NCBI GenBank assembly: GCA_036453145.1
Contig: JAZHVT010000003.1
Coordinates: 29,156 to 93,155 of the forward strand
Direction of reading: 5' to 3'
DNA: 64,000 nt
Origin: Eubacteriales bacterium
Lineage (GTDB): Bacteria; Bacillota; Clostridia; Lachnospirales; Lachnospiraceae
Positions 5,486 to 58,544 of this stretch are shown one piece after another. The notes under the pieces were generated by a model, which made no database searches, was not told where the DNA came from, and saw nothing but the letters and a program-made list of their open reading frames with translations. Numbering within the stretch: the stretch's first letter is position 1; every line of letters begins with the position of its first letter. The translations under genes and the position numbers were made by a program.

Positions 5486-8054
5486 GTATATCGCCTTGTT
5501 TGCTATATTCTGCGGCGGAGTGGCGCTGTTTTCGAATTTATTTTTTATCAGCCGCCAACAGACCCTGTCAGCGTCGGATCTTACAGATCCGACGCTTCCT
5601 GTCGTGTGTATCGATATTGACGGGAACAAAATCGATCAGCTAAGCGGGTTCACCTCGGAGATGAACGCCAAGGACATGCGCGATGCGTTGATCCCGATTT
5701 CTTCCAAGAGGTCAGTGACCATATCCTACAAGGCGTACAAGAACACGATCCGTTCTGTGTCCTATGAGGTGACAACGCCGGATACCGGTGAGGTTGTTGA
5801 AAATGCAAAGATCGGCAACTTTACGTCGGACGGGGATTACATGACGGCGTCGTTCACGCTGAGCAAGCCGATTCTGATGAACCGCGAGTATCCGATCTGC
5901 TTTACGATTCAGACTGACGAGACAACCGTCTATTACTATGCGAATCTGATTCAGCGCTCTGACCCTGTCACGAGCAACTATGTGCAGTTCGTCTATGACT
6001 TCTATCAGAACAGTCTGAATGCGGAGACATCCGCCGATCTGAATTCGTATCTTGAGACGGACAACACGATCACAAACAATACGTATACGAATGTCAACCT
6101 GCAATCGACGCTGAAGCAGGTCAGCTGGGGCTCACTCGCTCCGACTCTGTTCCGCAAGGCGGTCCCGAAGATCACAGAGATCAACGACAATACCTGCTCT
6201 ATGACAAATGAATACATTCTGAGCGCCACGAACGATGCAGGAGAGACCGAGTACTATCGCGTCACGGAATTCTACCGGATGCGCTACTACAACAGCAAAA
6301 TGTATCTGCTCAATTTCACAAGAGATGCGGAGCAGATCTTTGACGGCAGCAGCGGGGCGGCGGTCACGGCCTCCGGCGTCAATCTCGGAATTGCCAGCAA
6401 GTCCGTCCAGTATATGTCGGATGATGCCGGCGATCTGGTTGCATTTGTCCAGAATGGTGCTCTGTGGGAATTCAACTCATCGACGGAGAAGCTGTCGGAG
6501 GTGTTTTCATTTACGGACGGGACATCGGCGGACGAGCGGTACGACAATACGGACTGCGATATCAAGCTCATCAGAACGTACGAGGGCGGCGGACTGGACT
6601 TCATGGTCTACGGCTATATGAGCCGCGGAGAGCATGAGGGGCAGATGGGCATCATGGTGTGCCACTACAACGCAGAATCGTCGGTTGTAACGGAGAAGGT
6701 CTTTATTCCGTACAACAAGTCCTGGCAGCTGCTGAAGCATGATATTGCCCGCCTTTCCTATATGAATACGGACGGTGACGTCTACCTCTATCTGGACCGC
6801 AGTCTGTACCGGATCAAGAACGGGACAAACCAGGCGGAGACGCTGCTTACGGATATCACGCCGGAGTGCTTTGTTGCGAATACGGACAATAACATGATCG
6901 CGTACCAGAACGAGATGAAGGAAAATGCATCCCAGACGGTCACGGTCATGGACCTTGACAACGGAAAGACGAAGACCATCAGCGCGGGCAGCGGACAGTA
7001 CATCAAGGCGCTCGGCTTCTTCGGGGATGACTTCATGTATGGCGTCGCGAACCAGTCGGACCTTGTCACAGACACGTCGGGAGCAGTGACATTTCCGATG
7101 TGTGAGCTGAAGGTCGAGTCATTTGACGGAACGGTGAAGAAGGACTACAAGGCGGATGGCATCTATGTCACGGGTGTGACGATGGAGCCGGGCCTCGCGG
7201 AGCTTACGCGCGCGACGAAGAACAGTGACGGAAGCTATGCGGCGACGAGCGATGACACGATTCTGAACAGCTCTGCCGGAGCGGCTTCGTCGGTCACGGT
7301 CTCGACAAGCAATACGACGCGGCAGGGAACGACGGTCACGCTTGCGATGGCATCGACAGTCACAAACCTGAAGCCGACGGTCGGGAGCTTCCAGGTCCAG
7401 TATGCCGGCAGTGAGTCGGCGGACCTCAACCTCGGCAGCGACAGCGGAGATTACTATTACGTCTACGCGTACGGCGGTCTGCAGGGCATCTACTCGTCGG
7501 CGGCAGAGGCAGTTACAACGGCGGACGCTGATGTCGGCACGGTCGTGGATTCGGAGGGCCAGTATGTCTATGAGCGCGGCGCGAGAGCGACGAAGGCCGA
7601 GCTGAATAACGATGATATTCCGTCGGCATTCCTGTCCGGAGAGACAAATGCGGACAAGCTGCAGAGCATGCTCGATGAGGCGGCTGCCTCGTCATCCGGC
7701 AGTACGGCGTCTCAGGCCGAGTCAGCGGCAGAGAGCACGGACAGCGCGGCGGCAGAGTCTTCCGCGTCTTCGGGCTCATCCTCAGGCTCCGATACGCGTG
7801 TGATCAATCTGACGGGTTGCACGCTCGACGAAGTACTCTACGAGGTATCGCAGGGACGCGCTGTTGCGACAAGACTTGCGGACGGGTCGGCGGCCGTGAT
7901 CGTCGGCTATGACCAGTACAACACGCGGCTCTATAACTTCAGCACCGGTGAGCACTATTACATGGGCATGAACGACTCGACGGCGAGCATGCAGGCGGCC
8001 GGGAATATCTTTATCTCTTATGTTGCGCCGCAGGCGACGCTGAAGGATGGCTGA
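5466..8054 (+). CDS. Large membrane-anchored extracytoplasmic protein of unknown function (862 aa)
   Basis: Long ORF with host-like codon use; N-terminal basic-hydrophobic anchor, beta-rich middle, Ser/Ala linker, C-terminal segment resembling a peptidase C39-like fold (VIVGYD). Confidence 0.85.
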   Translation: MKKRIIKYIALFAIFCGGVALFSNLFFISRQQTLSASDLTDPTLPVVCIDIDGNKIDQLSGFTSEMNAKDMRDALIPISSKRSVTISYKAYKNTIRSVSYEVTTPDTGEVVENAKIGNFTSDGDYMTASFTLSKPILMNREYPICFTIQTDETTVYYYANLIQRSDPVTSNYVQFVYDFYQNSLNAETSADLNSYLETDNTITNNTYTNVNLQSTLKQVSWGSLAPTLFRKAVPKITEINDNTCSMTNEYILSATNDAGETEYYRVTEFYRMRYYNSKMYLLNFTRDAEQIFDGSSGAAVTASGVNLGIASKSVQYMSDDAGDLVAFVQNGALWEFNSSTEKLSEVFSFTDGTSADERYDNTDCDIKLIRTYEGGGLDFMVYGYMSRGEHEGQMGIMVCHYNAESSVVTEKVFIPYNKSWQLLKHDIARLSYMNTDGDVYLYLDRSLYRIKNGTNQAETLLTDITPECFVANTDNNMIAYQNEMKENASQTVTVMDLDNGKTKTISAGSGQYIKALGFFGDDFMYGVANQSDLVTDTSGAVTFPMCELKVESFDGTVKKDYKADGIYVTGVTMEPGLAELTRATKNSDGSYAATSDDTILNSSAGAASSVTVSTSNTTRQGTTVTLAMASTVTNLKPTVGSFQVQYAGSESADLNLGSDSGDYYYVYAYGGLQGIYSSAAEAVTTADADVGTVVDSEGQYVYERGARATKAELNNDDIPSAFLSGETNADKLQSMLDEAAASSSGSTASQAESAAESTDSAAAESSASSGSSSGSDTRVINLTGCTLDEVLYEVSQGRAVATRLADGSAAVIVGYDQYNTRLYNFSTGEHYYMGMNDSTASMQAAGNIFISYVAPQATLKDG

Positions 8055-27700: not shown

Positions 27701-28739
27701 CCGGGCGGACGCGCTCACGGCTCTCGGAAGCGTGCGGTCGGCCCGGATCTATGACGCGGACATGCGCACTCTGATTAGCGAGAGGGCCTCCTGGACCTAT
27801 CCGTTTGCTGGCAGCGAGACGATTCCGGTCGAGGTCTCCGTCTCGGAGCTGAAGACCGGCCGCTACTCGGACAAGGACGAGGAATTTGCGGAAAATGACG
27901 ATATGGCCCGGCTCTATCCGGAGCCGGAGGACGAGGAGCCGACAGTGCCGGAGTTTATCCGGCAGCGGGATATGAGGCTGGCCGCCGCGGAAGCAGAAAT
28001 GCCTGGAGAGACAGCCGGCTCTGGAAAGAAGAAAACGTCAGGTGCAGCTGCACCGGTATCTGCAGAATCGGTTGCCGGTTCGCGGCGGAGCGTTTCGGGA
28101 GCAGCGGCGTCCGGCTCCACGCGCGGAACCGCATACCACAGAGTCATGCAGCTGATCTCATTTGCGGAGGCAGCTGCGGGCGGCGGAGAGACCGCGGCGT
28201 CCGCAGACCCAGGGACAACGGGCAGTGGAGAGCAGATCTCTTCTGCGGGTTCGAGGCCGGGAAGAGCTGAAGGGACAACTGACCGGGACAGAGTGTACCG
28301 GAATATTCTTGAACAGCTTGGAAAGCTGGAGAAGTCCGGAAAGATCAGTGCGGAGGAGGCCGGCCTCGTTGATCTGCGGCGCGTCGCGTCGATGGCGGCA
28401 AGTCCGATGGGAAGACGGATGGCAGAGGCCGAGAGGAGAGGTGATTTGTACAGAGAGCAGCCCTTCGTTCTCGGAGTCGCCGCGTCTGAAATCCGGAGTG
28501 AGTGGCCGGACGATGAGATGATCTTTGTACAGGGAATCATCGATGCATTCTTCTACGAGGAGGACGGAATCGTTCTGCTTGATTACAAGACGGACCGCGT
28601 GCGGAATCCGGAGGAGCTGGCAGACCGGTACCGCGTGCAGCTCACGCAGTACCGTGAGGCCCTTGAGCGCGTGACCGGCAAAGACGTGAAGGAGACATAT
28701 ATCTGGTCCTTCCGCCTCGGGCGGGCCATACTAATGTAA
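24717..28739 (+). CDS. addA: Helicase-nuclease subunit AddA
   Basis: SAAAGSGKT, TFTKAAA, IDEYQD, VGDVKQSIYSFR, HKSKGLEYP, YVALTRAK, QGIID..LLDYKT; ATG 24717 after GGAGGAGG. Confidence 0.95.
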   Translation: MAISWTNEQKSVIHTRGKNILVSAAAGSGKTAVLVERIMSRITSDTDPVSIDELLIVTFTKAAAGEMRTRILSRLEDAAEQDPDNAYLADQVRRVGGAQITTIDGFCSYVIRNYGQSIGLAPGFRVAEEGETKLMKKDAVSAVLEEAYASADPDEQERFGAFVETFATGKTDASLEDLILRVFEAAESSPDPQGWLEHCHHENEASSPETLLQTDWMGMFREAAEENAEMAHSLAEKNAELAHSPEGPSAYIPTGDAYARLTEHVLAAIRGDDFYRKTRLALYDTEIPPLGRKKPAEGENPDLRDTFKETRDAVKKIIDELKEQYFFLPPDDAAASLRDGAGPLDMLLDLAERMRDRYAEMKEEKNILDFSDLEHNALQILRKDGERTYAARELAGQYREVMIDEYQDSNYLQEAILTAVSRIEDGEPDYFCVGDVKQSIYSFRQARPKLFMEKYHSYKGGTENGVRIDLHRNFRSRREVVDTVNGIFRQIMRIEVGGVDYDDDAALVKGAVFADTDEHQAEDAAADYRTEIMPVFTNEDADLMDDAGSASARELEARAVGTRIRRMVGHEKLLDQKTGELRPVRYEDIVILLRTTAEWSDVFMRVLDGMHIPCYTSSKEGYFGAIEVVTVLNYLRIIDNPQQDIPFTAVLTSAFAGLEAEDLARVRARDGAASYSGSTERANVSMYDAARFYALHGEEPALRARLEDFFAFFDSVRASVHDTPLHELIDRVITESGFGEYAAALPGGLQRTVNLRMLVDKAIAFEHTSYIGLFNFVRYIENLQKENVDFGELSTITEHEDVVRIYSIHKSKGLEYPVVFVCGMGKKFNTRELKATVLIHPEMGVASDYVDFRHRVRVPTLKKCAVKQRLLRDRIGEELRVLYVALTRAKQKLILTGSLKNEESFEHLSSDLPLSEPKLSAGFIVRAGTFWDWVIPAAKRMLDAETRAGLAQMTPEEREKMLMHDGGRRLSGSCLVFTPVRPSDLAADEVDTQVRRADALTALGSVRSARIYDADMRTLISERASWTYPFAGSETIPVEVSVSELKTGRYSDKDEEFAENDDMARLYPEPEDEEPTVPEFIRQRDMRLAAAEAEMPGETAGSGKKKTSGAAAPVSAESVAGSRRSVSGAAASGSTRGTAYHRVMQLISFAEAAAGGGETAASADPGTTGSGEQISSAGSRPGRAEGTTDRDRVYRNILEQLGKLEKSGKISAEEAGLVDLRRVASMAASPMGRRMAEAERRGDLYREQPFVLGVAASEIRSEWPDDEMIFVQGIIDAFFYEEDGIVLLDYKTDRVRNPEELADRYRVQLTQYREALERVTGKDVKETYIWSFRLGRAILM

Positions 28740-28746
28740 GTCACAG

Positions 28747-28967
28747 ATTGCAGTTCACACGCTGTCAGACCTCGGAAAGCGGTCAGCGATATCAGGAGCG
28801 GTGAGGGCGTTATACGGAGGAGTCCGAAGATCACCCTGAGCCGCTGTGTCAGCGGCGAAGGGAAGCTGAGGAGGACGGAGTCTGCCCGATACCGCCCTGA
28901 TATTCGCGACCGCATGCGACTTTGGATGGCGTGTGAACAGTAACGTACATACGGTGTGAACTGTAGC
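28747..28967. repeat. REP-like family B inverted pair (REPIN-like) plus an extra half-site
   Basis: The reverse complement of 28747-28808 aligns to 28884-28944 (CCTGATAT..GACCGC...GCGTGTGAAC); a third GTGTGAACTG lies at 28954. Confidence 0.75.
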
Positions 28968-28978
28968 AGCCCCAGACC

Positions 28979-29007
28979 TTGCAAGATCTGCGCATTTTCG
29001 GTATATT
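28979..29007 (+). promoter_or_regulatory. sigmaA promoter of prfB
   Basis: TTGCAA-17-TATATT. Confidence 0.6.
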
Positions 29008-29088
29008 AAAAGGTACAGTCGCGACTTTTCGCGGCGAGTAAAATATCACAGATGCCTGCACAGACAGGCGCGAAAGAGGGTGAGACTA

Positions 29089-30229
29089 TTGGTAGAGTTA
29101 GATCCGATCAAGCTTGAACTGAATTCCTACGACCAGCCATTAGTTGAAATGAGGGACTCACTTTGACCTCGCTGTCAAAGAGAAGCGAATCCAGGAATTA
29201 AACAGAGAAATGGAAGATCCTCATTTCTGGGACAATCCGGATGAGGCGACAAAGAAGCAGAGACTTCTCGGAAATCTGAAGAACGATGTGGAGACGTACA
29301 ACAAGCTTGTCTCCGATCACGACGATATCCGGGACATGATCGAGATGGCCGACGAAGAGCCGGATCCGTCTATCGTTCCGGAGGTCGAGGAGATGTTCGA
29401 GGATTTCAAGAACAAATTCGAGACGCTCCGCATGAAGACACTGCTCTCCGGCGAGTATGACGAATGCAACGCAATCGTCACGCTTCACGCGGGCACGGGC
29501 GGAACAGAGGCCATGGACTGGACGAGCATGCTTTACCGCATGTACTCGAGGTGGGCGGAGTCCCACGGCTTCCAGGTTGAGGTCCTTGACAGCCTTGACG
29601 GCGACGAGGCGGGCCTGAAGTCTATCACGTTCCAGGTAAACGGCGAGAATGCGTACGGTCTTCTGAAGTCCGAGCACGGTGTACACCGGCTCGTCCGCAT
29701 CAGCCCGTTCAACGCGAACGGCAAGAGACAGACTTCATTTTCCGCATGCGAGGTCATGCCGGACATCGAGGAGGACATCGATATCGAAATTGATCCGAAG
29801 GATATCCGGATTGATACATACCGCTCATCCGGTGCCGGCGGCCAGCATATCAACAAGACATCGTCGGCAATCCGCATCACGCATTTCCCGACGGGAATTG
29901 TCGTCACATGCCAGAATGAGCGCTCGCAGTTCCAGAACAAGGACAAGGCGTTCCAGGAGCTGAAGATCAAGCTGTTCATGCTGAAGCAGCAGGAAAATGC
30001 GGAGAAGCTCGATGATATCCGCGGCAAGGTCACGGACATCGCCTGGGGCAACCAGATCCGCTCGTATTTCCTTCAGCCGTATCAGCTGATCAAGGATCTG
30101 CGGACGGGCGAAGAGCAGACCAATGCACAGAAGGTGCTCGATGGCGGCATCGATCCGTTCATCAATGCGTACCTCAAGTGGATTGCTCTTGGCAATAAGG
30201 ATCAGAAGGACAAGACGGAAGCGAGATAA
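29089..30229 (+). CDS. prfB: Peptide chain release factor 2, with programmed +1 frameshift
   Basis: TTG 29089 after GAGGGTGA gives 25 codons to CTT TGA C (29161-67) preceded by internal SD AGGG; the +1 frame joins ORF 29210-30229 carrying the SPF anticodon mimic and GAGGQ. Confidence 0.97.
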
Positions 30230-30324
30230 CACATACGTCCGGAGGCGGCTGCAGGTCATCAGTACCAGCGGACGCTGCCGGATCATCAGGAAGCCGGGCG
30301 GGATTCGGAAGAAAGGCTGAAAAT

Positions 30325-31548
30325 ATGATCAATATAGCAATTATGGGTTACGGCACCGTAGGTGCAGGCGTATTCAAGGTTCTCAAAATGAACAGCGAGG
30401 CGATCACACGCCGCGTTGGTCACAGACTGAATATCAAGTATGTTCTGGATCTCAGGGACTTCCCGGGCGATCCGGCTGAGGACGTACTGACACACGACTT
30501 CAATGATATCCTGAATGATGACTCCGTCAGCATTGTTGTGGAGACAATGGGAGGACTGAAGCCGGCGTATAATTTCACGAAGGAGCTGCTGCTTGCAGGC
30601 AAGAACGTCTGCACGTCCAACAAGGAGCTGGTCGCCGAGCACGGTGTTGAGCTTCGCTCCATCGCACACGATATGAGCTGCAATTATCTGTTCGAGGCGA
30701 GCTGCGGCGGCGGTATTCCGATCATCCGCGTCCTCAATTCATCGCTCACAGCCGAGGAGATCGAGGAAGTGACGGGTATCCTGAACGGCACGACGAATTA
30801 TATTCTGACGAGCATGACGCAGGAGGGCGCGGACTTCAACGACGCGCTCAAGGAGGCTCAGCAGAAGGGCTTTGCGGAGCTTCATCCGGAGGCTGATATC
30901 GAGGGAATGGATGCGTGCCGCAAGATCGCGATCCTCTCCTCTCTCGCATATGGCAAGCATGTTAATTACAATTACGTGCCGACAGAGGGAATCACGAATG
31001 TTGATGCGACAGATATCCGGTATGCAAAGCAGCTCGGCGTCGTCATCAAGCTTCTCGCGACGAGCCGCCGTGAGAAGGAGGGCACATGGGCGATGGTCGC
31101 GCCGATGATGATCGGCAGTGAAAACCCGCTCTCTGCTGTCGATGGCGTCATGAATGCGGTCATGGTCAAGGGCAATGCGGTCGGAACGACTATGTTTTAC
31201 GGCAGCGGTGCAGGCTCTCTTCCGACGGCAAGCGCTGTGTGCGGCGATGTAATCGATGCCGCAAAGCATCTTCATACGACGATCAAGACGGATTCCGGAA
31301 CCGGCGTTACGATGAGACTCATGAAGATTGACAATGTGGCGCGCCCGTTCTTTGTCCGCTTCAGCGGAACAGAGGATGAGGCAAGAGCAGCGTTCGGGGA
31401 TATTCATGATATCATCCGCCTTGATGGCGTGGACGGCGAGTTCGGCTTCCTTACACCGACCATGAAGGAGGGCGATTTCAAGGCTGCGGCAGAGAAGTCC
31501 GGCAAAGTGATCAAGTGGTACAGAAGAGGAAAGAAAGAAGAACAGTAA
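30325..31548 (+). CDS. hom: Homoserine dehydrogenase
   Basis: GYGTVGAG, TSNKELVA, EASCGGGIP, GILNGTTNYIL, DIEGMDACRK. Confidence 0.95.
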   Translation: MINIAIMGYGTVGAGVFKVLKMNSEAITRRVGHRLNIKYVLDLRDFPGDPAEDVLTHDFNDILNDDSVSIVVETMGGLKPAYNFTKELLLAGKNVCTSNKELVAEHGVELRSIAHDMSCNYLFEASCGGGIPIIRVLNSSLTAEEIEEVTGILNGTTNYILTSMTQEGADFNDALKEAQQKGFAELHPEADIEGMDACRKIAILSSLAYGKHVNYNYVPTEGITNVDATDIRYAKQLGVVIKLLATSRREKEGTWAMVAPMMIGSENPLSAVDGVMNAVMVKGNAVGTTMFYGSGAGSLPTASAVCGDVIDAAKHLHTTIKTDSGTGVTMRLMKIDNVARPFFVRFSGTEDEARAAFGDIHDIIRLDGVDGEFGFLTPTMKEGDFKAAAEKSGKVIKWYRRGKKEEQ

Positions 31549-32769
31549 ATGCTGACAGTCAAAAAGTTCGCCGGCTCTTCAGCCGGCTCACCGGAGCAGC
31601 TCCGGAACGTAGCCAGGCGGTGTATCGAGGACTATGAAAAGGGCGATGATATCGTTGCCGTTATTTCATCGGGTGATACGCTGGCCGGATCACTGAGGAA
31701 GCAGGCGGGCGTTATCAGCGATTCTCCTTCCAAGCGAGAGCTTGATATGCTTATGACGACGGGGGCACAGGGAACTGCGGCTCTCCTCGCCATGACACTC
31801 GAGTCACTCGGTGTGCGGGCCATCTCCCTCAACGCCTTTCAGGCGGGCATTCATGTGACGGGAAGGTATGGCGAGGCGCGTCTCAAGAAAATCGACGGAA
31901 CCCGGATTCTGGATGAGCTCGGGGACCGGACTGTAGTCGTTGTTGCCGGCGATCAGGGCGTGAATGCCTATCATGACCTCGCAACACTGGGGCCGGGAGG
32001 CAGTAATATAACGGCTGTTGAGCTCGCAGGGGCCCTGAAGGCTGACAGCTGCGAATATTATACGGATGTCGACGGCATCTATACAGCTGATCCGTCCATC
32101 TGTCCGAAGGCCCGTGTTCTCCGCGATGTGACATACGGGGAAATGATGGACCTGGCGACGCTCGGAACCGGAAGCATACAGCCGGAGTGTGTTGAGCGCG
32201 CGAAGAAATACGGAATTCCGCTTGTGATCCGCTCACTGGAGCACAGGACAGAAGGGACGATTGTCAGAGAGGAGACTGTTTTGGAGAAAAATCTGATCAG
32301 CGGAGTTGCGCTGGACAAGAAGACAGACCGCGTGTCTGTTCTCGGGCTCAGGGATGAGCCGGGCGTTGCGTACCGTCTGTTTGATATTCTTGCAAAGGCG
32401 CAGGTCAATGTGGACCAGATTCTTCAGTCTCTCGGTCATGACGGGTCTGAGGACATTTCATTTACATGCCCGGAGGACCAGGTGGAGAAGGCCGTGGAGA
32501 CGCTGGAAAACAGCCGTGAGAAGCTGCCGTTTACAAAAATAGATGTCGACAGGGACACGGCCAAGGTCATGGTGACAGGATCCGGCATGATCGGCCGTCC
32601 GGGAGTCGCCGCGAAGCTGTTTGAGGCGCTCTACAATGAGAATATTAATATTTCGATGATATCGACCTCGGAGTTCCGGATTACCTGCATTATCAGCAGA
32701 AAGGATGGCGAAAAGGCTGTGAATGCGATTCATGATGCCTTCAGCCTGGATAAGTCATTCGCAGAGTGA
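31549..32769 (+). CDS. Aspartate kinase homologue (LysC-type, two ACT domains) with degenerate catalytic motifs
   Basis: AK-like N-terminus (TDVDGIYTADP retained) plus two ACT domains; KFAGSS, SSGDTLAG, TGAQ, AGDQG and LGPGGSN replace canonical motifs. Confidence 0.85.
   Translation: MLTVKKFAGSSAGSPEQLRNVARRCIEDYEKGDDIVAVISSGDTLAGSLRKQAGVISDSPSKRELDMLMTTGAQGTAALLAMTLESLGVRAISLNAFQAGIHVTGRYGEARLKKIDGTRILDELGDRTVVVVAGDQGVNAYHDLATLGPGGSNITAVELAGALKADSCEYYTDVDGIYTADPSICPKARVLRDVTYGEMMDLATLGTGSIQPECVERAKKYGIPLVIRSLEHRTEGTIVREETVLEKNLISGVALDKKTDRVSVLGLRDEPGVAYRLFDILAKAQVNVDQILQSLGHDGSEDISFTCPEDQVEKAVETLENSREKLPFTKIDVDRDTAKVMVTGSGMIGRPGVAAKLFEALYNENINISMISTSEFRITCIISRKDGEKAVNAIHDAFSLDKSFAE
32281..32769 (+). 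CDS. Putative internally initiated beta (ACT-only) subunit, 162 aa
   Basis: In-frame TTG at 32281, 6 nt after AGGAG, at the position where LysC beta subunits start (LEKNLISGVA). Confidence 0.55.
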   Translation: MEKNLISGVALDKKTDRVSVLGLRDEPGVAYRLFDILAKAQVNVDQILQSLGHDGSEDISFTCPEDQVEKAVETLENSREKLPFTKIDVDRDTAKVMVTGSGMIGRPGVAAKLFEALYNENINISMISTSEFRITCIISRKDGEKAVNAIHDAFSLDKSFAE

Positions 32770-32856
32770 GCTGAGAATGCGCGGGTGGAAAAGAGCTCTC
32801 TGAGAGATCAAGATTGACAAACATATATTCGATATAACGGCGATATTTTGTCATAC

Positions 32857-32898
32857 GAGCCGGGAAGGCGGTCAGAAACCGCTTTCCCGGCTCTTTTT
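32857..32898 (+). terminator. Intrinsic terminator after the hom-AK operon
   Basis: GAGCCGGGAAGGCGGT/ACCGCTTTCCCGGCTC plus TTTTT. Confidence 0.85.
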
Positions 32899-32906
32899 AT
32901 CCCTTC

Positions 32907-32987
32907 ATGTAACACGAATGTAAAGTATATGTAAAATCTATGGTAATTAAAATTTCCGTTATGTAAAATAGAGGTATGCTATATAAT
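32907..32987 (+). promoter_or_regulatory. 11-bp periodic TGTAAH boxes (PhoP/OmpR-family-like) and -10 TATAAT
   Basis: ATGTAA at 32907, 32918 and 32929, ATGGTA at 32940, ATGTAA at 32961; TATAAT at 32982 with a poor -35. Confidence 0.7.
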
Positions 32988-33099
32988 ATCTGAGTAAAGC
33001 GGGCCTGTCACAGATCCCGTTTTTCAAAGGAAGGCTGAAGGAATATGGAAATTATCCGGGGCAATGAGGTCCCGGAGTCTGGGGAAAGGAGAACAGACC

Positions 33100-34851
33100 T
33101 TGTCTATTCTGAATTTTGTCGAGCTTTTCGGCGGCCTTGCATTTTTCCTGTATGGTATGACACTGATGTCCGGTTCATTGGAGAAGATGACGGGCGGCCA
33201 GCTCGAAAAAATGCTCAAGAAGGCAACTGACAACCCATGGAAGGGACTTCTTGTCGGAACGATCATCACGATTGCGATCCAGTCGTCATCCGCGACGACT
33301 GTCATGCTGGTCGGCTTCGTCAACTCCGGCATTATGGAGCTGCATCAGACGATCAGTGTCATCATGGGATCGGATATCGGCACAACACTGACAGCATGGA
33401 TTCTCTCACTGACAGGCATCGATGACTCGGCGAGCCCGGTGCTCTCGATGCTGAAGCCGGAAAATTTTTCGCTTGTGTTCGCGGTCGTCGGCATTTTACT
33501 GCTGATGGTCTCAAAGAAGCAGAAGCGGAAGGACCTCGGTACGATTCTGATCGGCTTCGCAATTCTTATGACGGGTATGTCGATGATGAGCTCGTCTATG
33601 AGTCCTCTCGCGAATGATCCGAAATTCCAGAATGCGCTTGTTGCGTTCAGCAACCCGGTGCTGGGTGTCCTGATCGGCGCGGTGATCACCGGTATCATTC
33701 AGAGCTCGGCGGCGTCCATCGGTATTCTGCAGTCCCTGTCCATGACGGGTCTCATTTCCTACAAGGTGGCCATTCCGATTATCATGGGATGTAATATCGG
33801 AACGTGCATGACGGCGATTCTCTCATCGATCGGTGTCAACCGCAAGGCAAAGCGCGTCGCGGCAGTCCATATTTCGATCAAGATCATCGGTACGATTTTC
33901 TGGCTGATTGTCTTTGAGGTATTAAATGCGATCTTCCATTTTGCAGTCCTGGACAGCATGGCGAACCCGGTCGGCATCGCGATCAGCCACACGATTTTCA
34001 ACCTGCTGACCATTCTTCTGCTGTTCCCGTTCCAGAAGCAGCTTGACAGACTTGCGCATATCATGATCAAGGATACGGAGGAGGAGCAGGAGCTCTTCCT
34101 TGATGAGCGCCTGATGGTGACGCCGTCGATCGCGGTTGCGGAATGTCAGAATGCGATGGACAAGATGGTCAGAAAGGCAAGCAAGGGTCTCGACGCGGCC
34201 ATCGATCTGCTGTACAACGGCTATTCGCAGGAGAAGTTCGATTTCGTCGGGAAAAATGAAAAGAAAATCGACTCCTACGAGGACCATATCGGCGCGTATC
34301 TCATGAAGCTGACGACGACCCAGCATCTGTCAGAGGCAGACAAGCGCGCGGCATCGACGATGCTTCATGGCATCGGAGAATTCGAGCGGCTCGCGGACCA
34401 TGCGCACTACATGGCAAAATCAGCGGAGGAGCTGAATGACAAGAAGATTCAGTTCTCGCCGCAGGCACAGGTGGAGCTGAAGAAGCTTCTTGAAGCGGTT
34501 CAGGAAATTTACATGCTTGCGGCCCAGTGCTATGAAAAGCAGGACCTCAGCGTGGCGAGAAGGATCGAGCCTCTGCAGGATGTCATCTCTGTGATCTGTG
34601 AGTCACTGAAGGAGCGCCATATCGAGCGGCTGGAGACAGGCGTATGTACGGCTGAGCAGGGCTTCATTTTTAATGATATTCTGTACAGCTGCGGGAGAAT
34701 TGCCGATCACAGCATGAACATTGCAGCCATCGTGCTCCGCATTGCGACGGCTTCGTCGGGCGAGGGCTACATGCACGACATCAAGAAGCACCATTCCCCG
34801 GAAAATGAGAAAATGTACGACGAGTACTACGAGAAATTCATGCCGGTATAA
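33100..34851 (+). CDS. Na+/phosphate cotransporter with C-terminal PhoU domains
   Basis: GGLAFFLYGM, two QSS repeats (IQSSSATT, IQSSAAS), GCNIGTC, PhoU ERLADH; TTG 33100 after AAGGAGA. Confidence 0.92.
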   Translation: MSILNFVELFGGLAFFLYGMTLMSGSLEKMTGGQLEKMLKKATDNPWKGLLVGTIITIAIQSSSATTVMLVGFVNSGIMELHQTISVIMGSDIGTTLTAWILSLTGIDDSASPVLSMLKPENFSLVFAVVGILLLMVSKKQKRKDLGTILIGFAILMTGMSMMSSSMSPLANDPKFQNALVAFSNPVLGVLIGAVITGIIQSSAASIGILQSLSMTGLISYKVAIPIIMGCNIGTCMTAILSSIGVNRKAKRVAAVHISIKIIGTIFWLIVFEVLNAIFHFAVLDSMANPVGIAISHTIFNLLTILLLFPFQKQLDRLAHIMIKDTEEEQELFLDERLMVTPSIAVAECQNAMDKMVRKASKGLDAAIDLLYNGYSQEKFDFVGKNEKKIDSYEDHIGAYLMKLTTTQHLSEADKRAASTMLHGIGEFERLADHAHYMAKSAEELNDKKIQFSPQAQVELKKLLEAVQEIYMLAAQCYEKQDLSVARRIEPLQDVISVICESLKERHIERLETGVCTAEQGFIFNDILYSCGRIADHSMNIAAIVLRIATASSGEGYMHDIKKHHSPENEKMYDEYYEKFMPV

Positions 34852-34857
34852 AACATC

Positions 34858-34893
34858 AAAAAAGAGCTTCCGCATATGCGGAGGCTCTTTTTT
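34858..34893. terminator. Bidirectional terminator
   Basis: AAAAAGAGCTTCCGC-ATAT-GCGGAGGCTCTTTTTT. Confidence 0.85.
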
Positions 34894-34944
34894 GATCGGG
34901 TAAGAACATTCGGCTATTGCGCCTGAAGCGGTGCCGCCCGGTCT

Positions 34945-35187
34945 TTATTCTGCTGCCGGAGCACCATTCTCCGGATGTGTCTCCTTGTAATCAAGGTAAT
35001 CGTTGACGGCCTTCTCGACAATGTCGGAGTCCATGCCATGGACCATAGCGGCCTCATCCAGGGACTCACCCTGAGATGCCGGGCATCCGAGGCAGTGCAT
35101 GCCCATGCTCATGAGAAGCGGTGCAATGTTGATGTCGACACGAAGAATGTCGCCGATTGTCATATCTTTTGTGATGTGCTGTGCCAT
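34945..35187 (-). CDS. DUF1858 domain protein
   Basis: [35 protein letters not shown]; SD GGAGG. Confidence 0.9.
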
Positions 35188-35313
35188 ATGTATCCCTCCG
35201 GAACTGATGTTTTATACGCTGTTATCCGCACGATATGCGGGACAGCTATGTGTCGTCGATAGATAGTGTCAGTATAAGCCTAAACCAGACCATTTTGCAA
35301 GGATTTATTTTGA

Positions 35314-35342
35314 TTGCATTTGTCATGAAGAGGGATTAGAAT
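35314..35342 (+). promoter_or_regulatory. sigmaA promoter of ferredoxin (divergent promoter for DUF1858 adjacent)
   Basis: TTGCAT-17-TAGAAT on +; TTGCAA-18-TATACT on - within about 35270-35300. Confidence 0.7.
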
Positions 35343-35384
35343 AGCGGTATAGCATTTATGCACAACTCAAGGAGGTAATAAATC

Positions 35385-35555
35385 ATGGCATATGTTATTT
35401 CTGATGAATGCGTCAGCTGCGGCACATGCGCAGGTGAGTGCCCGGTAGGAGCTATTTCTGAGGGCGATTCTCATTATGAGATCAATCCGGATGAGTGCGT
35501 TGAGTGCGGCACATGCGCAGCAGCATGTCCGACAGGCGCTATCTCCCAGGGCTGA
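35385..35555 (+). CDS. fdx: Clostridial-type 2[4Fe-4S] ferredoxin (56 aa; absent from the ORF track)
   Basis: MAYVISDECVSCGTCAGECPVGAISEGDSHYEINPDECVECGTCAAACPTGAISQG; two CxxCxxCxxxCP motifs; SD AAGGAGGT. Confidence 0.97.
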   Translation: MAYVISDECVSCGTCAGECPVGAISEGDSHYEINPDECVECGTCAAACPTGAISQG

Positions 35556-35571
35556 GATAAGCGTGAGACAG

Positions 35572-35610
35572 AAAAAGAGGACCGGTGCAAAGGCACCGGC
35601 CCTCTTTTTT
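35572..35610. terminator. Bidirectional terminator between fdx and mecA
   Basis: AAAAAGAGGACCGGTGC-AAAG-GCACCGGCCCTCTTTTTT. Confidence 0.85.
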
Positions 35611-36362
35611 TACAGCTCTCCGAGCTTTTCAACTGCGTTCCCTGAGACAACGATCTCCTCATGTTCACGGAGATGAGCTTCGCCGGCAGCGGAGAGCATC
35701 TCACTCTTGCCGTACTCGGACAGGGTGTTGCAGATTCTGTTGAAATCCTCCGGCGTGTGACTGCCCTGATGAACCGCGAGCAGATACTCCCCGGATTTCC
35801 GGATCCGGTACAGCGAGCTGTCCGACTTGAAGAAGCCGCGTAGCGCGCGGGAGCCCGCGATTACGGAATCGAGGTCCATGAACCGGAAGAGACGCAGAAG
35901 CTGTACGGGCTCTGTCCTGGTCTTGCCTGCAGACCGCGGTGTGCTGTCGGCGGGCATTCCTTTCTTAGCCTTAGTGCCTGCCTTTTTTGCGTCAAGCAGT
36001 CTGTGAAAAACATCGATCATATCGTCGGCGCCCTCGACATTCCAGTCGATTCCCTCATCGGCCTTTATGCTGGTCGGAGAGAACTTCGAGAAGCGGTTGT
36101 CGAGCTCGGCCGGATCATCGACACGCGTGATGATGAGCGTGAGTGCGTGCTCCGCCTCAGGAATTGCCTCGATCATGATCGGAATATTGTCGCCGGCACG
36201 GAATCCGAAACGGCGGTTTGCCTCGAGCATCATGTCGCGGAAAAGCTGCTTCGCCTTGTCAGAGCCATAGACGAGCTCCCCGATGTCGATGCTCCGGTCT
36301 GCCAGATCCTGGCTGGTCAGTGTGCACTTGATCTGATTATCATTGATTTTCTCTATCTTCAT
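35610..36362 (-). CDS. mecA: ClpCP adaptor protein MecA
   Basis: MKIEKINDNQIKCTL..DL..R, LFRDMM, MIEAIP, ICNTLSEYG, HLREHEE. Confidence 0.88.
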   Translation of the reverse strand: MKIEKINDNQIKCTLTSQDLADRSIDIGELVYGSDKAKQLFRDMMLEANRRFGFRAGDNIPIMIEAIPEAEHALTLIITRVDDPAELDNRFSKFSPTSIKADEGIDWNVEGADDMIDVFHRLLDAKKAGTKAKKGMPADSTPRSAGKTRTEPVQLLRLFRFMDLDSVIAGSRALRGFFKSDSSLYRIRKSGEYLLAVHQGSHTPEDFNRICNTLSEYGKSEMLSAAGEAHLREHEEIVVSGNAVEKLGEL

Positions 36363-36369
36363 GCCCGTA

Positions 36370-36398
36370 ATTATACGCCGGGAACATCTCCTTGTAAA
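36370..36398 (-). promoter_or_regulatory. sigmaA promoter placing the TSS at the mecA start codon (leaderless-type)
   Basis: Minus strand TTTACA-17-TATAAT-7 nt-ATG; no SD in the 7 nt (TACGGGC). Confidence 0.65.
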
Positions 36399-36638
36399 TG
36401 AGATGGGATCTTGTCAATATTCACAGAACTTTTTGCAGGATCTATTGGAGTTTCGAAAAATCCATTGCCAAATACCCCTGATCCGCTATAATCCAAGGCA
36501 CAGAAGCGCATCTGTTGTGACATGCGGCGCGGCACGGCCGGCTTCGCCGCAGAGGCAAGGGCGGAGATTTCTATCCGCGGGCCCGATACGTGGCAGTGCA
36601 GCGGAGAGGGCAGTTGTAAACTCACACGAGGAATCACA

Positions 36639-36872
36639 ATGGAAAAACAAAATCGTCAGGAAAAAGGACCGTACAGACAGTACCGCAGAGAGCTTCAGTC
36701 ACTGCGGGACGGCGGATGCAGGCTTTATTATCCCGGCGACCGGGAGATTACGCCGAAGCAGATGGCGGAAACGATGGCGTCGGACCTGGGAGCGACCTAC
36801 ATGCGTGATACCGTCTACGATCAGAAAGGGAGGCCGGTCGGAATACATTTTCAGAGAATTAACCTGGAATAA
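36639..36872 (+). CDS. Small hypothetical protein (77 aa)
   Basis: SD GAGGA, promoter TTGCCA-16-TATAAT (36465-92); C-terminal YMRD..YDQKG....HFQRI pattern looks like a conserved small clostridial protein (recollection, unverified). Confidence 0.65.
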   Translation: MEKQNRQEKGPYRQYRRELQSLRDGGCRLYYPGDREITPKQMAETMASDLGATYMRDTVYDQKGRPVGIHFQRINLE

Positions 36873-36990
36873 CAGAGCGGAGACTGCTGATTCCAGCTTT
36901 ATAACACGAAAACAGACATAGTAAGAATTACTGCGGGCAATAATAATTTCATAAGTAAAGACTGCCGCAAAATGGGCAGACTGACAGATG

Positions 36991-37058
36991 GAACCGTGTG
37001 GAAGGAAATTCCGGAAAATCTTTCCGGGGCGTGCATATGCCTTCACACGGTTCTTTTT
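36991..37058 (+). terminator. Long hairpin with U-tract
   Basis: GAACCGTGTG(GAAGG)...(CCTT)CACACGGTTC plus TTTTT. Confidence 0.65.
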
Positions 37059-37160
37059 GTAATTATTCAGCACCCCTCGGAAAAATGATGAAAGCCGGAC
37101 GAAGAGCAGGCTCTCCCTTCATCTTTCTCAATGCTCCGAGGGGTGCTGAATAATTACATT
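37059..37160. repeat. REP/MITE-like family A element with 22-bp perfect terminal IR
   Basis: GTAATTATTCAGCACCCCTCGG / CCGAGGGGTGCTGAATAATTAC; the reverse complement of 37142-60 is identical (19/19) to 15460-78. Confidence 0.85.
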
Positions 37161-37218
37161 TACGAAAGGTTCCATCCTTGGTATAATGATGCCAAATGCG
37201 AGGTTATAGATAAAGTAC

Positions 37219-38919
37219 ATGCAGAAAGCAGCCAGAAAGAAAAAGAAACCGATTCTGCCGGTTCTCCTGCTGGCAGTGATCGTAGCTGTCGCCGGGGGTG
37301 TCTATTATTATATCGACAGCAGGACTCCGTCGAAGAAGCATCTGAGCGCTCAGGAATATTTCGGAGGCTCGGACCAGTCCATGGCGGTTACCGCGGGAGG
37401 CGAGGTCACGAAGAACGCCGCAATCGTCTATGACGGCAAGACCTACATTTCCGAGGATGTCATCGCAGACAGAGTTGATCCTTCATTTTATTATGAAGAA
37501 AATGAAAAGCTTCTCGTCGTCACGACGCCGACACAGAAGACGACGCTGAACCTGACGGATGGCTCGTCTCCTGACAAGGAGGCGGAAATTCTGGACGGAA
37601 CCGTATATATTTCCGAGGATTTTCTGAAGCAATGGGCGGATGTGGAGGTCACGCAGTATGACAGCCCCACGCGGCTTGTCATCAAGTCGTCGTGGAATTA
37701 TCCGGCCGGAGACGTCTCAGAGGACGCAGCAATCCGAGAGTCGGCGGACATAAAGGCGCCGATTGTCAGGGACGTGTCCTCTGGCGATACGGTCCGGCTT
37801 CTTGACGTCAGCTCTGACGGAAGCGCGGAGGACGGCAAGCAGGACGGCTTCACGAAGGTTGAGTCAGACAACGGGTACGTCGGATACATCAGCGACTCAA
37901 GCATCACGAATATACGGGAATTGACGGAGGATCACACGAGCAGTATCGGGGATTACACGACAGTCGGATTTGACGGAAAGATCAACATGGTTTTTCACCA
38001 GACGACAAGTCAGGCATCAAACAACGCACTGTCCAGCTCGATCGCAAAGGTGACGGGCGTCAATGTCATCGCGCCAACGTGGTTTTTCCTTGACGACAAG
38101 GAGGGAGGCATTCAGGACCTCTCCAGCTCCGAGTATGTCGCGACAGCGCACAGCGCAGGCATGAAGGTGTGGGCGGTGCTCAATGACTTCGATGGAAATG
38201 TCGCTTCGTCCGATGATACGGCGGCATCTCTCTCGACGGACACATATCGGTCAAAAATTGTTGATACGGTAATGCAGTCCATCAAGGCGTCCGGCGCCGA
38301 TGGTCTTAACATCGACATGGAGCATGTGACGAAAAACAGTGTGAATGATTTTCTTGAGCTCGTGCGTGAATTTTCCGTCGAGTGCAGGAACGCCGGCATC
38401 GCACTGTCCGTCGACGATTATGTTCCTACATTTACGGGATATATGAACCGGGTGGAGCAGGCGAGAGTCTGCGACTATATTGTCACAATGTGCTATGATG
38501 AACACAGCACGGATTCTGAGGAAGCCGGGTCGGTCTCATCTCTGCCCTTCGTAAAGAAGGGAATCGAGGATACGCTGAAGATTGTTCCCGCCGAAAAAAT
38601 GATCGTTGCACTCCCGTTCTTCACGAGACTGTGGACGACAGCAGGCGGGAAGGTGACCAGCACGGCCTATGGAATGACAGATGCGGAGAATGCCGTATCG
38701 TCCATGGGCATGTCCGAGAAATGGGACGATCAGACCGGGCAGACATATTGCGAGCTGACATCCGGGGATACAAAATATCAGATGTGGCTTGAAAATGAGA
38801 AGTCCATCGGCCTTAAAATGGAGGCTGTGCAGGAGGCCGGCTGCGCCGGTGTTGCGGAGTGGAAGCTCGGCCTCGAGAAACAGGAAATCTGGGAGATTAT
38901 AAATAATTATCTGGCCTGA
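37219..38919 (+). CDS. Membrane-anchored glycoside hydrolase family 18 with SH3-like domain
   Basis: N-terminal TM, APTWF, DGLNIDME catalytic motif, MCYDEH, WKLGLE; promoter TTTACG-17-TATAAT (37159-87). Confidence 0.88.
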   Translation: MQKAARKKKKPILPVLLLAVIVAVAGGVYYYIDSRTPSKKHLSAQEYFGGSDQSMAVTAGGEVTKNAAIVYDGKTYISEDVIADRVDPSFYYEENEKLLVVTTPTQKTTLNLTDGSSPDKEAEILDGTVYISEDFLKQWADVEVTQYDSPTRLVIKSSWNYPAGDVSEDAAIRESADIKAPIVRDVSSGDTVRLLDVSSDGSAEDGKQDGFTKVESDNGYVGYISDSSITNIRELTEDHTSSIGDYTTVGFDGKINMVFHQTTSQASNNALSSSIAKVTGVNVIAPTWFFLDDKEGGIQDLSSSEYVATAHSAGMKVWAVLNDFDGNVASSDDTAASLSTDTYRSKIVDTVMQSIKASGADGLNIDMEHVTKNSVNDFLELVREFSVECRNAGIALSVDDYVPTFTGYMNRVEQARVCDYIVTMCYDEHSTDSEEAGSVSSLPFVKKGIEDTLKIVPAEKMIVALPFFTRLWTTAGGKVTSTAYGMTDAENAVSSMGMSEKWDDQTGQTYCELTSGDTKYQMWLENEKSIGLKMEAVQEAGCAGVAEWKLGLEKQEIWEIINNYLA

Positions 38920-38946: not shown

Positions 38947-39921
38947 GTGGCAGATTATTCAATGTTCAAGCAGCAGTTCAAGGGGTTTGACAGGGACGAG
39001 GTCCTCAGCTATATCCATCAGAAGGAAGAGGAGATGGCTGCGAAGGAGGAATCTCTGAAGCAGGAGATCAGCAAGCGCGACAAGATCATTTCAGAGCTGA
39101 AGACGCGCATCATCCTGAAGGACGATCAGGTTGAGCAGCTGAGAGCTGAGATCGACACGAAGTACAAGAAATATATCGACACATACAGCCAGATCAGCGA
39201 TCTCGCTTACGAAGCAAAGATGAGGGGAGAACAGCTTGTAAACGACGCGACGGTCAAGGCAAACAAGATGCGCACGGATGCGGAAAATGAGGCCAGAGCA
39301 AAGGTCGACACCGCGAGCGCGCAGGCTGAGAAGACCATGAGCGACGCGGACGCAAAGGCGCAGACGACTGTGAAGGATGCGGACGCGAAGGCAAAGCAGA
39401 CGGTCGAAGAGGCGGATTCACGCGCAAAGCTTACGCTTGATGACGCAAACCGCAAGGCACAGAAGAAGCTCGACGATGCGGATGCAGAGGCAAAGCGCCG
39501 TGTTGCCTCTGTCGAGAGCGTCATTGACGCAAAGCTGACGGACGGCAGAAAGCGCTACAGCGCAGTCCATGATGAGATGAACGATATTGTCCGGATGTTC
39601 AACCAGATCCAGAGAAAGTTCATGCAGTCCTATAAGGAGGTCCATGAGATTATCAACAGCATGCCGGAGGCATTTGACGATGCGGAGCTGAGTGATGAGG
39701 ATGAGCTGGACGACGAGAACGATGACGAGCTTCAGGCGATCAGCTCAGGCTTCAGCCTGGATGACCTCGACGAGGAGGCGGATGAGCTCGATCTGGATGA
39801 TGACAGCGACGATGAGAACAATACTGACACAAAGCGCGGGGACGCGGATGATGATGACAAGCCGTCACCTGACAATGACAGCAAGACGATTGATATCACG
39901 TCCATCGGCGCTGCGAACTGA
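38947..39921 (+). CDS. DivIVA-like coiled-coil protein with acidic tail
   Basis: FKQQFKGFDRDEVLSYI (DivIVA-type N-terminus), 11-residue A..KA repeats, Asp/Glu-rich C-terminus; GTG after AAAGGAG. Confidence 0.7.
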   Translation: MADYSMFKQQFKGFDRDEVLSYIHQKEEEMAAKEESLKQEISKRDKIISELKTRIILKDDQVEQLRAEIDTKYKKYIDTYSQISDLAYEAKMRGEQLVNDATVKANKMRTDAENEARAKVDTASAQAEKTMSDADAKAQTTVKDADAKAKQTVEEADSRAKLTLDDANRKAQKKLDDADAEAKRRVASVESVIDAKLTDGRKRYSAVHDEMNDIVRMFNQIQRKFMQSYKEVHEIINSMPEAFDDAELSDEDELDDENDDELQAISSGFSLDDLDEEADELDLDDDSDDENNTDTKRGDADDDDKPSPDNDSKTIDITSIGAAN

Positions 39922-56627: not shown

Positions 56628-57416
56628 TCAGACAAGCCCTCCGTCGCCGCTGAGTCCTCCGAGACCGGAGGGAAGCGTGCCGTCTGAAGAGGCACCGGAG
56701 GATGAGCTTCCTTCGGATGAAGAGTCTGCACCCTCGGACGGGTTGACGCTCTCTGATGAGGAATCTGCACCGCCGGCAGCGCTTCCTTCATTTTCCGAGG
56801 AAGAGGCGGCGCTTTCTGAGGAGCTGTCGGCGGATCCTGCTGACTGCCCTGTCAGTGCGCTGTACAGCCGTTTTTCGACATTTGTCTCGAACTCCGATAC
56901 GGAATCAGCATCTGAAAAATCGGTTACCTGCGCCTCCTTCACAGCGTAATCCCAGACGCCTGTTGATACGAGTGTGACCGCGCTGACGGCAATGACGGCG
57001 GCGGACAGGATGATGCCTGCAGCATTCAGGGCAATGGCGACGGATGCCATCGGGCTGAGCCTTCTGCGGCGGGAGAGAAGGGCAAATATGAGCCCGAGTC
57101 CCCCGAGAAAGATGGAGGTGCCGAAGATGATGCCGAGCAGGGAGCAGATTCCGCAGAGGAGCGCGGCCTTTGCCATGCCGTTCGGCTCGTGGTTCCGGCG
57201 GATCTCCGGGTCAAAGCGGTCAGGGTCCTGCTCATAGTGGCCGGTCCCGTTGAAATCGTCGAAAGGCGACTCGGAGTAAGGGCTCAGAAATGAGCCGCGC
57301 CAGGGATCGGCGAATGGGTCTGTCTGCTCGCTCTCGCGGTTTCTGAGCTCGGGATTGTGCTCGGCGTTGGCGCTGTCGCTCTGGTCGTACTGGTCTGATT
57401 CGTGAAAAAGTCCCAT
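56628..57416 (-). CDS. DUF4190-like membrane protein with Ser/Gly-rich tail
   Basis: GMAKAALLCGICSLLG two-TM motif; ATG 57416 after AGGAG. Confidence 0.7.
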   Translation of the reverse strand: MGLFHESDQYDQSDSANAEHNPELRNRESEQTDPFADPWRGSFLSPYSESPFDDFNGTGHYEQDPDRFDPEIRRNHEPNGMAKAALLCGICSLLGIIFGTSIFLGGLGLIFALLSRRRRLSPMASVAIALNAAGIILSAAVIAVSAVTLVSTGVWDYAVKEAQVTDFSDADSVSEFETNVEKRLYSALTGQSAGSADSSSESAASSSENEGSAAGGADSSSESVNPSEGADSSSEGSSSSGASSDGTLPSGLGGLSGDGGLV

Positions 57417-57531
57417 GAAAAATCTCCTGCCTGGGGTTGCCTGCAATAGTGTATACATTTAGCAGTATAACACTTGCGTCGGATTGTGGTACAATTATTA
57501 TAAAGAAGATTCAATGGAGCTCGGGAGAAAC

Positions 57532-58380: not shown

Positions 58381-58447
58381 ATCGATATTACGATATCGAT
58401 ATTTTCACAGGTTTGCCTTGTTTAACTAAAAGCGGTTGTGCTATTCT
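58381..58447 (+). promoter_or_regulatory. Palindromic operator candidate and fumC promoter
   Basis: ATCGATAT-TACG-ATATCGAT (58381-400); TTGTTT-18-TATTCT with extended TG. Confidence 0.5.
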
Positions 58448-58544
58448 GGGAACAGACATGACATTGAGAGAGCTCGTTTTCATTTTCAAAGCAGCTCCCG
58501 CAGCGGTATATGAACTGTCAATCCAGTCAAAGAGGAGAAAAACA

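Follow-up and report, generated by a model that had tools for sequence, protein, structure and literature searches.

An aspartate kinase (AK)-like protein encoded next to the homoserine dehydrogenase gene hom in a 64,000-nucleotide (nt) stretch of a Lachnospiraceae genome (contig JAZHVT010000003.1, hereafter the window) has lost most of the mutagenesis-defined active-site residues of an aspartate kinase and is nevertheless maintained by strong selection. The protein, here called AK*, is the 406-amino-acid (aa) product of the open reading frame (ORF) at 31549..32769 on the plus strand. By vertical descent and by position, it is orthologous to the hom-linked, LysC-type (alpha2beta2-like) AK of Lachnospiraceae, and no stray paralogue. 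Pfam detects AA_kinase at residues 1-229 and two ACT domains, and the closest solved relatives by sequence are the AKs of Synechocystis, C. glutamicum, and P. aeruginosa (E 1e-111 to 1e-87). Judged from its sequence, AK* probably no longer phosphorylates aspartate and would have been retained as an ACT protein that senses amino acids on a dead kinase scaffold and acts on another protein of the aspartate pathway.

In order to compare the active site residue by residue, AK* was aligned with canonical Lachnospiraceae AKs and with E. coli AKIII (sequence 100% identical to PDB 2J0W). Every one of the motif replacements listed in a previous, sequence-only reading of this stretch proved to be real, and the frame is full length and unbroken from ATG to TGA, as that reading had also stated. 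In AK*, KFGGTS has become KFAGSS (G8A, 31570-72), SAMGKTTD has become SSGDTLAG (residues 40-47, 31666-31689), TTGEQ has become TTGAQ (E73A, 31765-67, equivalent to AKIII E119), and TGFQG has become AGDQG (F135D, 31951-53, AKIII F184). Further downstream, TLGRGGSDTT reads TLGPGGSNIT, with R149P (31993-95) at the position of AKIII R198 and D153N (32005-07) at that of D202, DPR reads DPS (R183S, 32095-97), and GAGVLHNRS reads GTGSIQPEC (residues 209-213 SIQPE, 32173-32187). Mutagenesis assigned AKIII K8 and D202 to catalysis, and AKIII E119 and R198 bind the alpha-amino and alpha-carboxylate groups of aspartate, while D239 and R241 in the DPR motif of the M. jannaschii AK are involved in nucleotide binding (all summarised in the C. 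acetobutylicum AK structure paper, PMC4142519). Three of the four mutagenesis-defined AKIII residues (E119, R198, and D202) are replaced in AK*, the sole survivor being K8, which corresponds to K6. AK* therefore has neither the catalytic Lys and Asp pair, nor the aspartate-binding Glu and Arg, nor the DPR Arg together with the KFGG phosphate loop by which an aspartate kinase is recognised. Of 150 diverse AK representatives, selected at 50% identity from a profile search of 1.84 billion representatives, 140-145 retain each residue of this K/E/R/D tetrad.

The changes extend well beyond these motifs. Among 165 canonical relatives, 178 alignment columns are conserved at >=98% (115 in the kinase domain and 63 in the ACT part), and AK* differs at 46 of them (36 kinase, 10 ACT). 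The same columns show on average 0.5 differences, and at most 12, in a canonical sequence, and the excess in AK* is far beyond chance.

The sequence-only reading had favoured retention over decay, and this is borne out by 11 intact copies and by low ratios of nonsynonymous to synonymous substitution rates (dN/dS), 0.02-0.03 in both domains. The 1221-nt ORF is intact in 11/11 copies from independent assemblies, and alleles of the window lineage show at most 7 synonymous and 0 nonsynonymous differences. Across three species-level lineages (the window; RUG094/L002/L028; RUG611/L009), dS ranges from 0.34 to 0.68 and dN from 0.012 to 0.024, resulting in a dN/dS of 0.02-0.07. Comparisons with the window gave 0.025-0.028 for the kinase-like domain and 0.016-0.042 for the ACT part, and hom showed 0.013-0.015 in the same genome pairs. 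Within the kinase-like domain, 8 nonsynonymous changes (548 sites) were counted versus 77 synonymous ones (187 sites; P=7e-37 under neutrality), and neutrality is rejected for both domains at P<=1e-19. No stops or frameshifts were found in the 11 assemblies of the three lineages or in a 65%-identical sister gene, and AK* shows neither mark of a unitary pseudogene, a disrupted frame or a dN/dS near 1.

Earlier, an ancestor of AK* went through a burst of change specific to this gene; strong purifying selection now acts along the full length. Between the window and its sister lineage L001, release factor 2 (PrfB) is 89% and Hom 90% identical, versus 65% for the AK-like protein (P0003 in L001; kinase 58%, ACT 78%). 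Canonical AKs are 76-81% identical (kinase 80-85%) across genomes in which PrfB is 66-80% and Hom 52% identical. In Tajima relative-rate tests, for which L003 served as the canonical ingroup and L010 as the outgroup, AK* carried 102 unique changes versus 23 in L003 (p=1.6e-12, ~4.4-fold), divided into 72 versus 12 in the kinase and 30 versus 11 in the ACT part, and both PrfB (13 versus 18) and Hom (19 versus 22) were clock-like. Altogether, 31 invariant positions are altered in both AK* and P0003 (21 kinase, 10 ACT), including R149, R183, and the VLHNR block. Since the two lineages parted, a further 15 invariant kinase-domain positions have been lost in the window, including G8, T46, D47, E73, F135, and D153, and 17 in P0003, including G9, S11, G150, S152, and T172-D173-V174, with 0 and 1 changes, respectively, at invariant ACT positions. 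The two proteins differ in residue at at least 15 active-site positions despite 90% identical Hom. Such different losses are expected if catalysis had already gone in the common ancestor, and they are hard to square with a new enzymatic activity common to both proteins.

Since AK-based searches could miss some relatives of such a fast-evolving protein, the slowly evolving Hom was used as the query. This search uncovered L038 (Hom 88% identical), which carries the same degenerate AK-like protein, and a second degenerate clade; a metagenome scan added one further near-identical locus, and the profile search of 1.84 billion representatives returned no separate AK*-like cluster. We refer to the window lineage and its relatives, including L001, as clade A*, and to L039 and L040 as clade B*. 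The clade B* genes (L039:6249-7460 and L040:1584-2804; Hom 75-76% identical) encode a different degenerate hom-linked AK, 83% identical between the two members, 51-56% to the window, and 60-61% to canonical AK. Their motifs read KFGGACTAS, xPMxET, ASGDP, TG(C/T)TG, TLGAGGSDAM, and DP(L/E). The aspartate-binding residues are missing (E73D, Q74P, F135C/T, R149A, and DPR to DPL/DPE), and K6, G8, G9, D153, and LHNR are retained. The clade B* AK is likewise accelerated, with 98 versus 17 unique changes in the Tajima test (p=4e-14) and 20 versus 25 for Hom, and its dN/dS between L039 and L040 is 0.067, at a dS near saturation. In a neighbour-joining tree of 124 Hom proteins, clades A* and B* each received 100% bootstrap support, and their common ancestor included canonical-AK-linked Homs in 98/100 replicates; the two degenerations were therefore independent. 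Kinase-domain positions hit in both clades number 20 versus 12.4 expected (p=8e-4).

A third outcome is seen in L041 (4001-5340), where a terminator and DUF1858 come directly after prfB-hom and the locus lacks an AK; the hom-linked gene has been deleted there. L042 carries a canonical AK that differs at 2/178 invariant columns. We read this distribution as AK catalysis at the hom locus having become dispensable in these Lachnospiraceae, with the gene deleted once and kept in altered form twice. AK degeneration may be recurrent and scattered. Elsewhere in the database, the AK-like P0223 shows E->A, R->K, D->E, and DPR->NPL, and the AK-like representative P0292 shows R->I. Two database 'aspartate kinases', P0004 (488 aa) and P0121 (529 aa), were rejected as relatives of AK*: both are canonical AKs with a duplicated internal block, an exact repeat of ~90-125 kinase-domain residues that is likely an assembly artefact or a recent tandem duplication.

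Four other explanations were weighed against loss of catalysis with retention as a sensor, and they rank from a re-tooled kinase over selection on an internal ACT-only product and a still-active unusual AK down to decay. The first holds that the AA_kinase domain uses ATP on a different, non-amino-acid substrate and is still regulated through its ACT domains. One argument for this explanation comes from clade B*, where mainly aspartate-binding residues were altered, independently of clade A* and in the pattern of a specificity switch; the clade B* protein could have switched specificity rather than died. The very low dN/dS of the AK* kinase-like domain and the persistence of the nucleotide-site motifs K6, TDVDG, and YTADP would also fit. 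In AK* itself, however, the catalytic Asp is Asn, the loop reads KFAG, the DPR Arg is lost, and VLHNR is rewritten. Moreover, the active-site differences from P0003 leave clade A* without a conserved new active site, and the replacements in clades A* and B* are not convergent in residue type. We consider a re-tooled kinase unlikely for AK* and more plausible for clade B*.

The second explanation concerns the ACT half. The sequence-only reading had described the ACT domains as intact, which holds for the feedback-site positions and not for the domains as a whole, given the 10 changes at canonical-invariant ACT positions. AK* keeps D269, G272, A274, Q293, M347, N367, I368, S374, and E375, which align, in this order, to D274, G277, A279, Q298, M354, N374, I375, S381, and E382 of the C. 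glutamicum AK (CgAK). Among these, D274, G277, M354, and N374 were picked as effector-site positions. A279, Q298, I375, S381, and E382 are sites of feedback-deregulating CgAK mutations tabulated in a review (PMC10464499). On this evidence the ACT part seems to be functional. Eight of the replacements at canonical-invariant ACT positions are common to AK* and P0003 (F275Y, S341M/F, V343T, M348I/V, N350R, M357L, I376F, and V380C), and these point to an ancestral change of ligand or interface that was then frozen.

At the boundary between the kinase-like and ACT parts lies a candidate internal start for an ACT-only, beta-like product of 162 aa (32266..32283, plus strand). A Shine-Dalgarno (SD)-like AGAGAGGAG at 32266-32274 is followed, 6 nt on, by an in-frame TTG (codon 245) at 32281-32283, the arrangement typical, at the level of sequence, of AK beta subunits. 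Four canonical relatives have GTG at codon 245, every clade A* member has TTG, and clade B* has ATG, in all these genes after a AGGGAGGAG-like stretch. The counterpart of this codon in C. glutamicum LysC is V250, the GTG start of the beta subunit. The encoded amino acid thus varies (V, L, M) but the codon remains an initiation codon, which suggests that an ACT-only beta-like product may still be made from it. This conservation, together with the invariant ACT positions having ceased to change after the initial burst, could mean that selection acts mainly on the ACT-only product from the internal TTG, or on operon structure, with the full-length dead kinase as a by-product. We regard this as rather improbable, since a kinase-like half with a dN/dS of 0.025 and so strong a departure from neutrality is unexpected if only the 3' half mattered, and truncation to an ACT-only gene was seen in no lineage.

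Thirdly, AK* might still be the aspartate kinase of the cell, with an unusual active site. NCBI and JGI both name the protein 'aspartate kinase', and AK* scores above the cut-offs of the equivalog profile NF005155 (437 bits, cut-off 346; canonical relatives 560-565) and of NF005154 (400 bits, cut-off 376). The classic hom-AK operon position, the strong purifying selection, and the lack of another AK in ~84 kb around the gene would agree with such a role. In contrast, AK* reaches only 338 bits with TIGR00656, under the cut-off of 402 and below the 444-455 of canonical relatives. Its aspartate-holding Glu and Arg are now Ala and Pro and its catalytic Asp is Asn, at positions kept almost throughout the diverse AK set; the ~4.4-fold acceleration is confined to the AK gene, and L041 has deleted this gene yet keeps hom. 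An active aspartate kinase is thus quite improbable. Early decay of a pseudogene, which the many lost invariant residues and the loss of the gene in L041 might have suggested, is refuted by the intact ORFs in all assemblies and the sister, and by a dN/dS of 0.02-0.07 at a dS of 0.34-0.68.

Several observations weigh against AK* being a sensor on a dead kinase. The kinase-like domain has a dN/dS as low as that of the ACT part, and a pure scaffold might be freer to change. K6, the second loop glycine, the GG of TLGxGG, TDVDG, and D181-P182 are still present, and with these motifs AK* may bind nucleotide or have residual or altered chemistry. In P0275, a 44-member cluster of otherwise canonical-looking AKs, the same position shows D->N together with a shortened ACT1; this single change may therefore be tolerated, and D153N is not to be over-weighted. 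The AlphaFold2 model of AK* (mean pLDDT 88.5), for which Foldseek returned the alpha2beta2 AKs 5YEI and 3AB2 as best structural matches (TM 0.82-0.90), shows mainly that sequence and fold do not conflict, because its 45-sequence alignment is dominated by canonical AKs. Pfam scans of 30 further large ORFs of the window and of ~10 kb of flank on either side (~84 kb in total) revealed neither a second AK nor any asd, dap, or thr gene. Finally, transcription of AK* is only weakly indicated: wastewater cDNA-library contigs (>=97% identity) span hom, the hom/AK* junction, and part of AK*, with ambiguous labels and low depth, and bovine metatranscriptome contigs at the locus covered only the conserved prfB, from other organisms.

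If AK* is a sensor on a dead kinase, the hom-linked AK would have stopped being an aspartate kinase in the lineage of Chordicoccus, a Lachnospiraceae genus, and would have been kept as a folded protein. The aspartate-pathway step would then be supplied by an AK elsewhere in the genome, or by uptake; we infer a second, active AK elsewhere because Hom is strongly conserved and because L041 has deleted its hom-linked copy. The ACT pair would sense an amino acid, of the Thr and/or Lys type, the dead kinase domain would serve as an oligomerisation or output scaffold, and the resulting alpha*/beta complex would probably modulate another aspartate-pathway protein, for which the co-transcribed Hom is a candidate and another AK an alternative.

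That AK* might give Thr/Lys feedback on Hom in trans had been put forward together with the observation that Hom has only a degenerate ACT-like tail. The tail is indeed degenerate, as it has no Pfam ACT match and the NCBIfam match ends at profile position 360/430. Relatives whose AK is canonical have the same tail, so it is not peculiar to this genome. Feedback in trans on Hom is possible, considering that hom and AK* share an operon and that Hom has no recognisable ACT domain. Against it stand the identical Hom tail in relatives with a normal AK, the persistence of hom without an adjacent AK in L041, and the 140-nt gap in the sister lineage instead of the stop/start abutment. Literature searches found nothing relevant on trans-acting ACT regulators of Hom.

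With regard to known systems, AK* resembles the LysC-type alpha2beta2 AKs (C. glutamicum 3AAW/3AB2, P. aeruginosa 5YEI) in domain order, length, and predicted fold. It shares with the C. glutamicum AK the feedback-site positions and a start codon with SD-like sequence aligned with V250, and with canonical Lachnospiraceae AKs the location of its gene next to hom. Unlike these AKs, it is changed at about a third of the invariant kinase-domain positions, including aspartate-binding, catalytic, and nucleotide residues. Pseudoenzymes that have turned into regulators are a known kind, and HisZ is the textbook case: an inactive paralogue of histidyl-tRNA synthetase, it is the regulatory subunit of the short ATP-phosphoribosyltransferase and gives end-product feedback to its partner. 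Like HisZ, AK* descends from an active biosynthetic enzyme, has lost catalytic residues, and is kept by selection. HisZ, however, arose by duplication and has a proven partner, whereas in AK* it is the orthologue itself that would have lost catalysis. The bifunctional AK-homoserine dehydrogenases of the ThrA type, in which AK-type ACT domains are physically coupled to Hom for threonine control, provide a model for the trans-feedback idea, but ThrA is one polypeptide with an active kinase, as opposed to two genes and a degenerate kinase here. ACT-only small regulatory subunits, such as AK beta and IlvN/IlvH of acetohydroxyacid synthase, sense ligands and act on a catalytic partner; AK* is similar to them in its conserved beta-like internal start and differs in having a full, selected kinase-like domain before the ACT pair. 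In line with the sequence-only reading, which knew of no such system, full-text searches on aspartokinase or aspartate kinase pseudoenzymes found no paper, and AK* would be the first AK-derived pseudoenzyme.

The genes around AK* are arranged on the plus strand as follows. prfB (29161..30229), identified by its ORF, its frameshift site, and synteny, has the classic programmed +1 frameshift site CTTTGAC at 29161, and the listed ORF at 29210-30229 is only its post-frameshift part. hom (30325..31548) encodes a homoserine dehydrogenase of 407 aa with intact catalytic motifs, and its TAA directly abuts the ATG of AK* (TAAATG, 31546..31551), so that the two genes are likely translationally coupled. 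Within AK*, the kinase-like (AA_kinase) domain comprises residues 1-245 (31549..32283) and the two ACT domains residues 246-406 (32284..32766). A strong intrinsic-terminator-like hairpin at 32857..32893, with a 16-bp stem containing 11 G-C pairs and a T run, closes the hom-AK* unit. The block addB-addA-prfB-hom-AK-(...)-DUF1858-MecA is common to the AK* locus and the canonical-AK relatives L003-L007, and it is also found in the nearest AK* relatives L001, L002, L008, L009, L028, and L030-L035. Horizontal acquisition of AK* was rejected on the basis of this shared synteny, and an assembly or sequencing artefact was rejected because the same protein occurs in many independent assemblies. The exact AK* sequence is present in bioreactor, chicken-gut, pig-gut, and wastewater metagenomes and in rumen metagenome-assembled genomes (MAGs), and NCBI labels members of its 90% cluster 'aspartate kinase' from Chordicoccus sp. 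or from Lachnospiraceae or Eubacteriales MAGs.

A Na/Pi cotransporter gene with a PhoU domain (window 33064-34851) lies between AK* and DUF1858. It is also present in the sister L001 and is not at that position in L003-L007, L039, L040, L041, or L042, making it an insertion specific to the degenerate-AK clade, behind its own terminator-separated gap. In L006 (6776-7972) and L007 (6743-7972), both with a canonical AK, a gene of the Metalloenzyme/PhosphMutase family takes the place of hom and may encode an alternative homoserine-kinase-type enzyme. The only other aspartate-related gene seen within the window encodes an aspartase/fumarase-class lyase (Lyase_1 and FumaraseC_C, 58413-59921) and adjoins heterodisulfide-reductase-like Fe-S genes. 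Three ORFs of the window had no Pfam match at E<=1e-5, namely 5466-8054 (862 aa), 38947-39921 (324 aa), and 56628-57458 on the minus strand (276 aa), and gene calls are found at their positions in related contigs (862 aa in L036, 319-324 aa in L030/L031, and 276 aa in L037). No Rfam match was found within 28000-37500.

Chordicoccus is a rumen organism, and one of its species has already been used as a cattle inoculant (PMC11747079). As AK* is named aspartate kinase and passes an equivalog model, genome-scale models of Chordicoccus and its relatives would credit these organisms with an AK step, which the AK* gene probably cannot perform. Clade A* is narrow and the function of AK* putative, so the value of the case is moderate. 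The relatives of this locus nevertheless form a natural experiment with three outcomes, an active enzyme, a degenerate one that was kept (twice), and a deleted one, and their comparison bears on how allosteric enzymes become pure regulators. More tentatively, the hom-linked AK could have a second, non-catalytic job that outlasts the need for its catalysis, for instance as a Thr/Lys-sensing allosteric subunit of Hom or of another AK; we hold this to be possible, though on balance doubtful. If true, this would account for purifying selection having maintained a dead or re-tooled AK in two independent lineages, and AK* would represent a HisZ-like regulatory pseudoenzyme for the aspartate pathway, with an alpha*/beta pair made from one gene.

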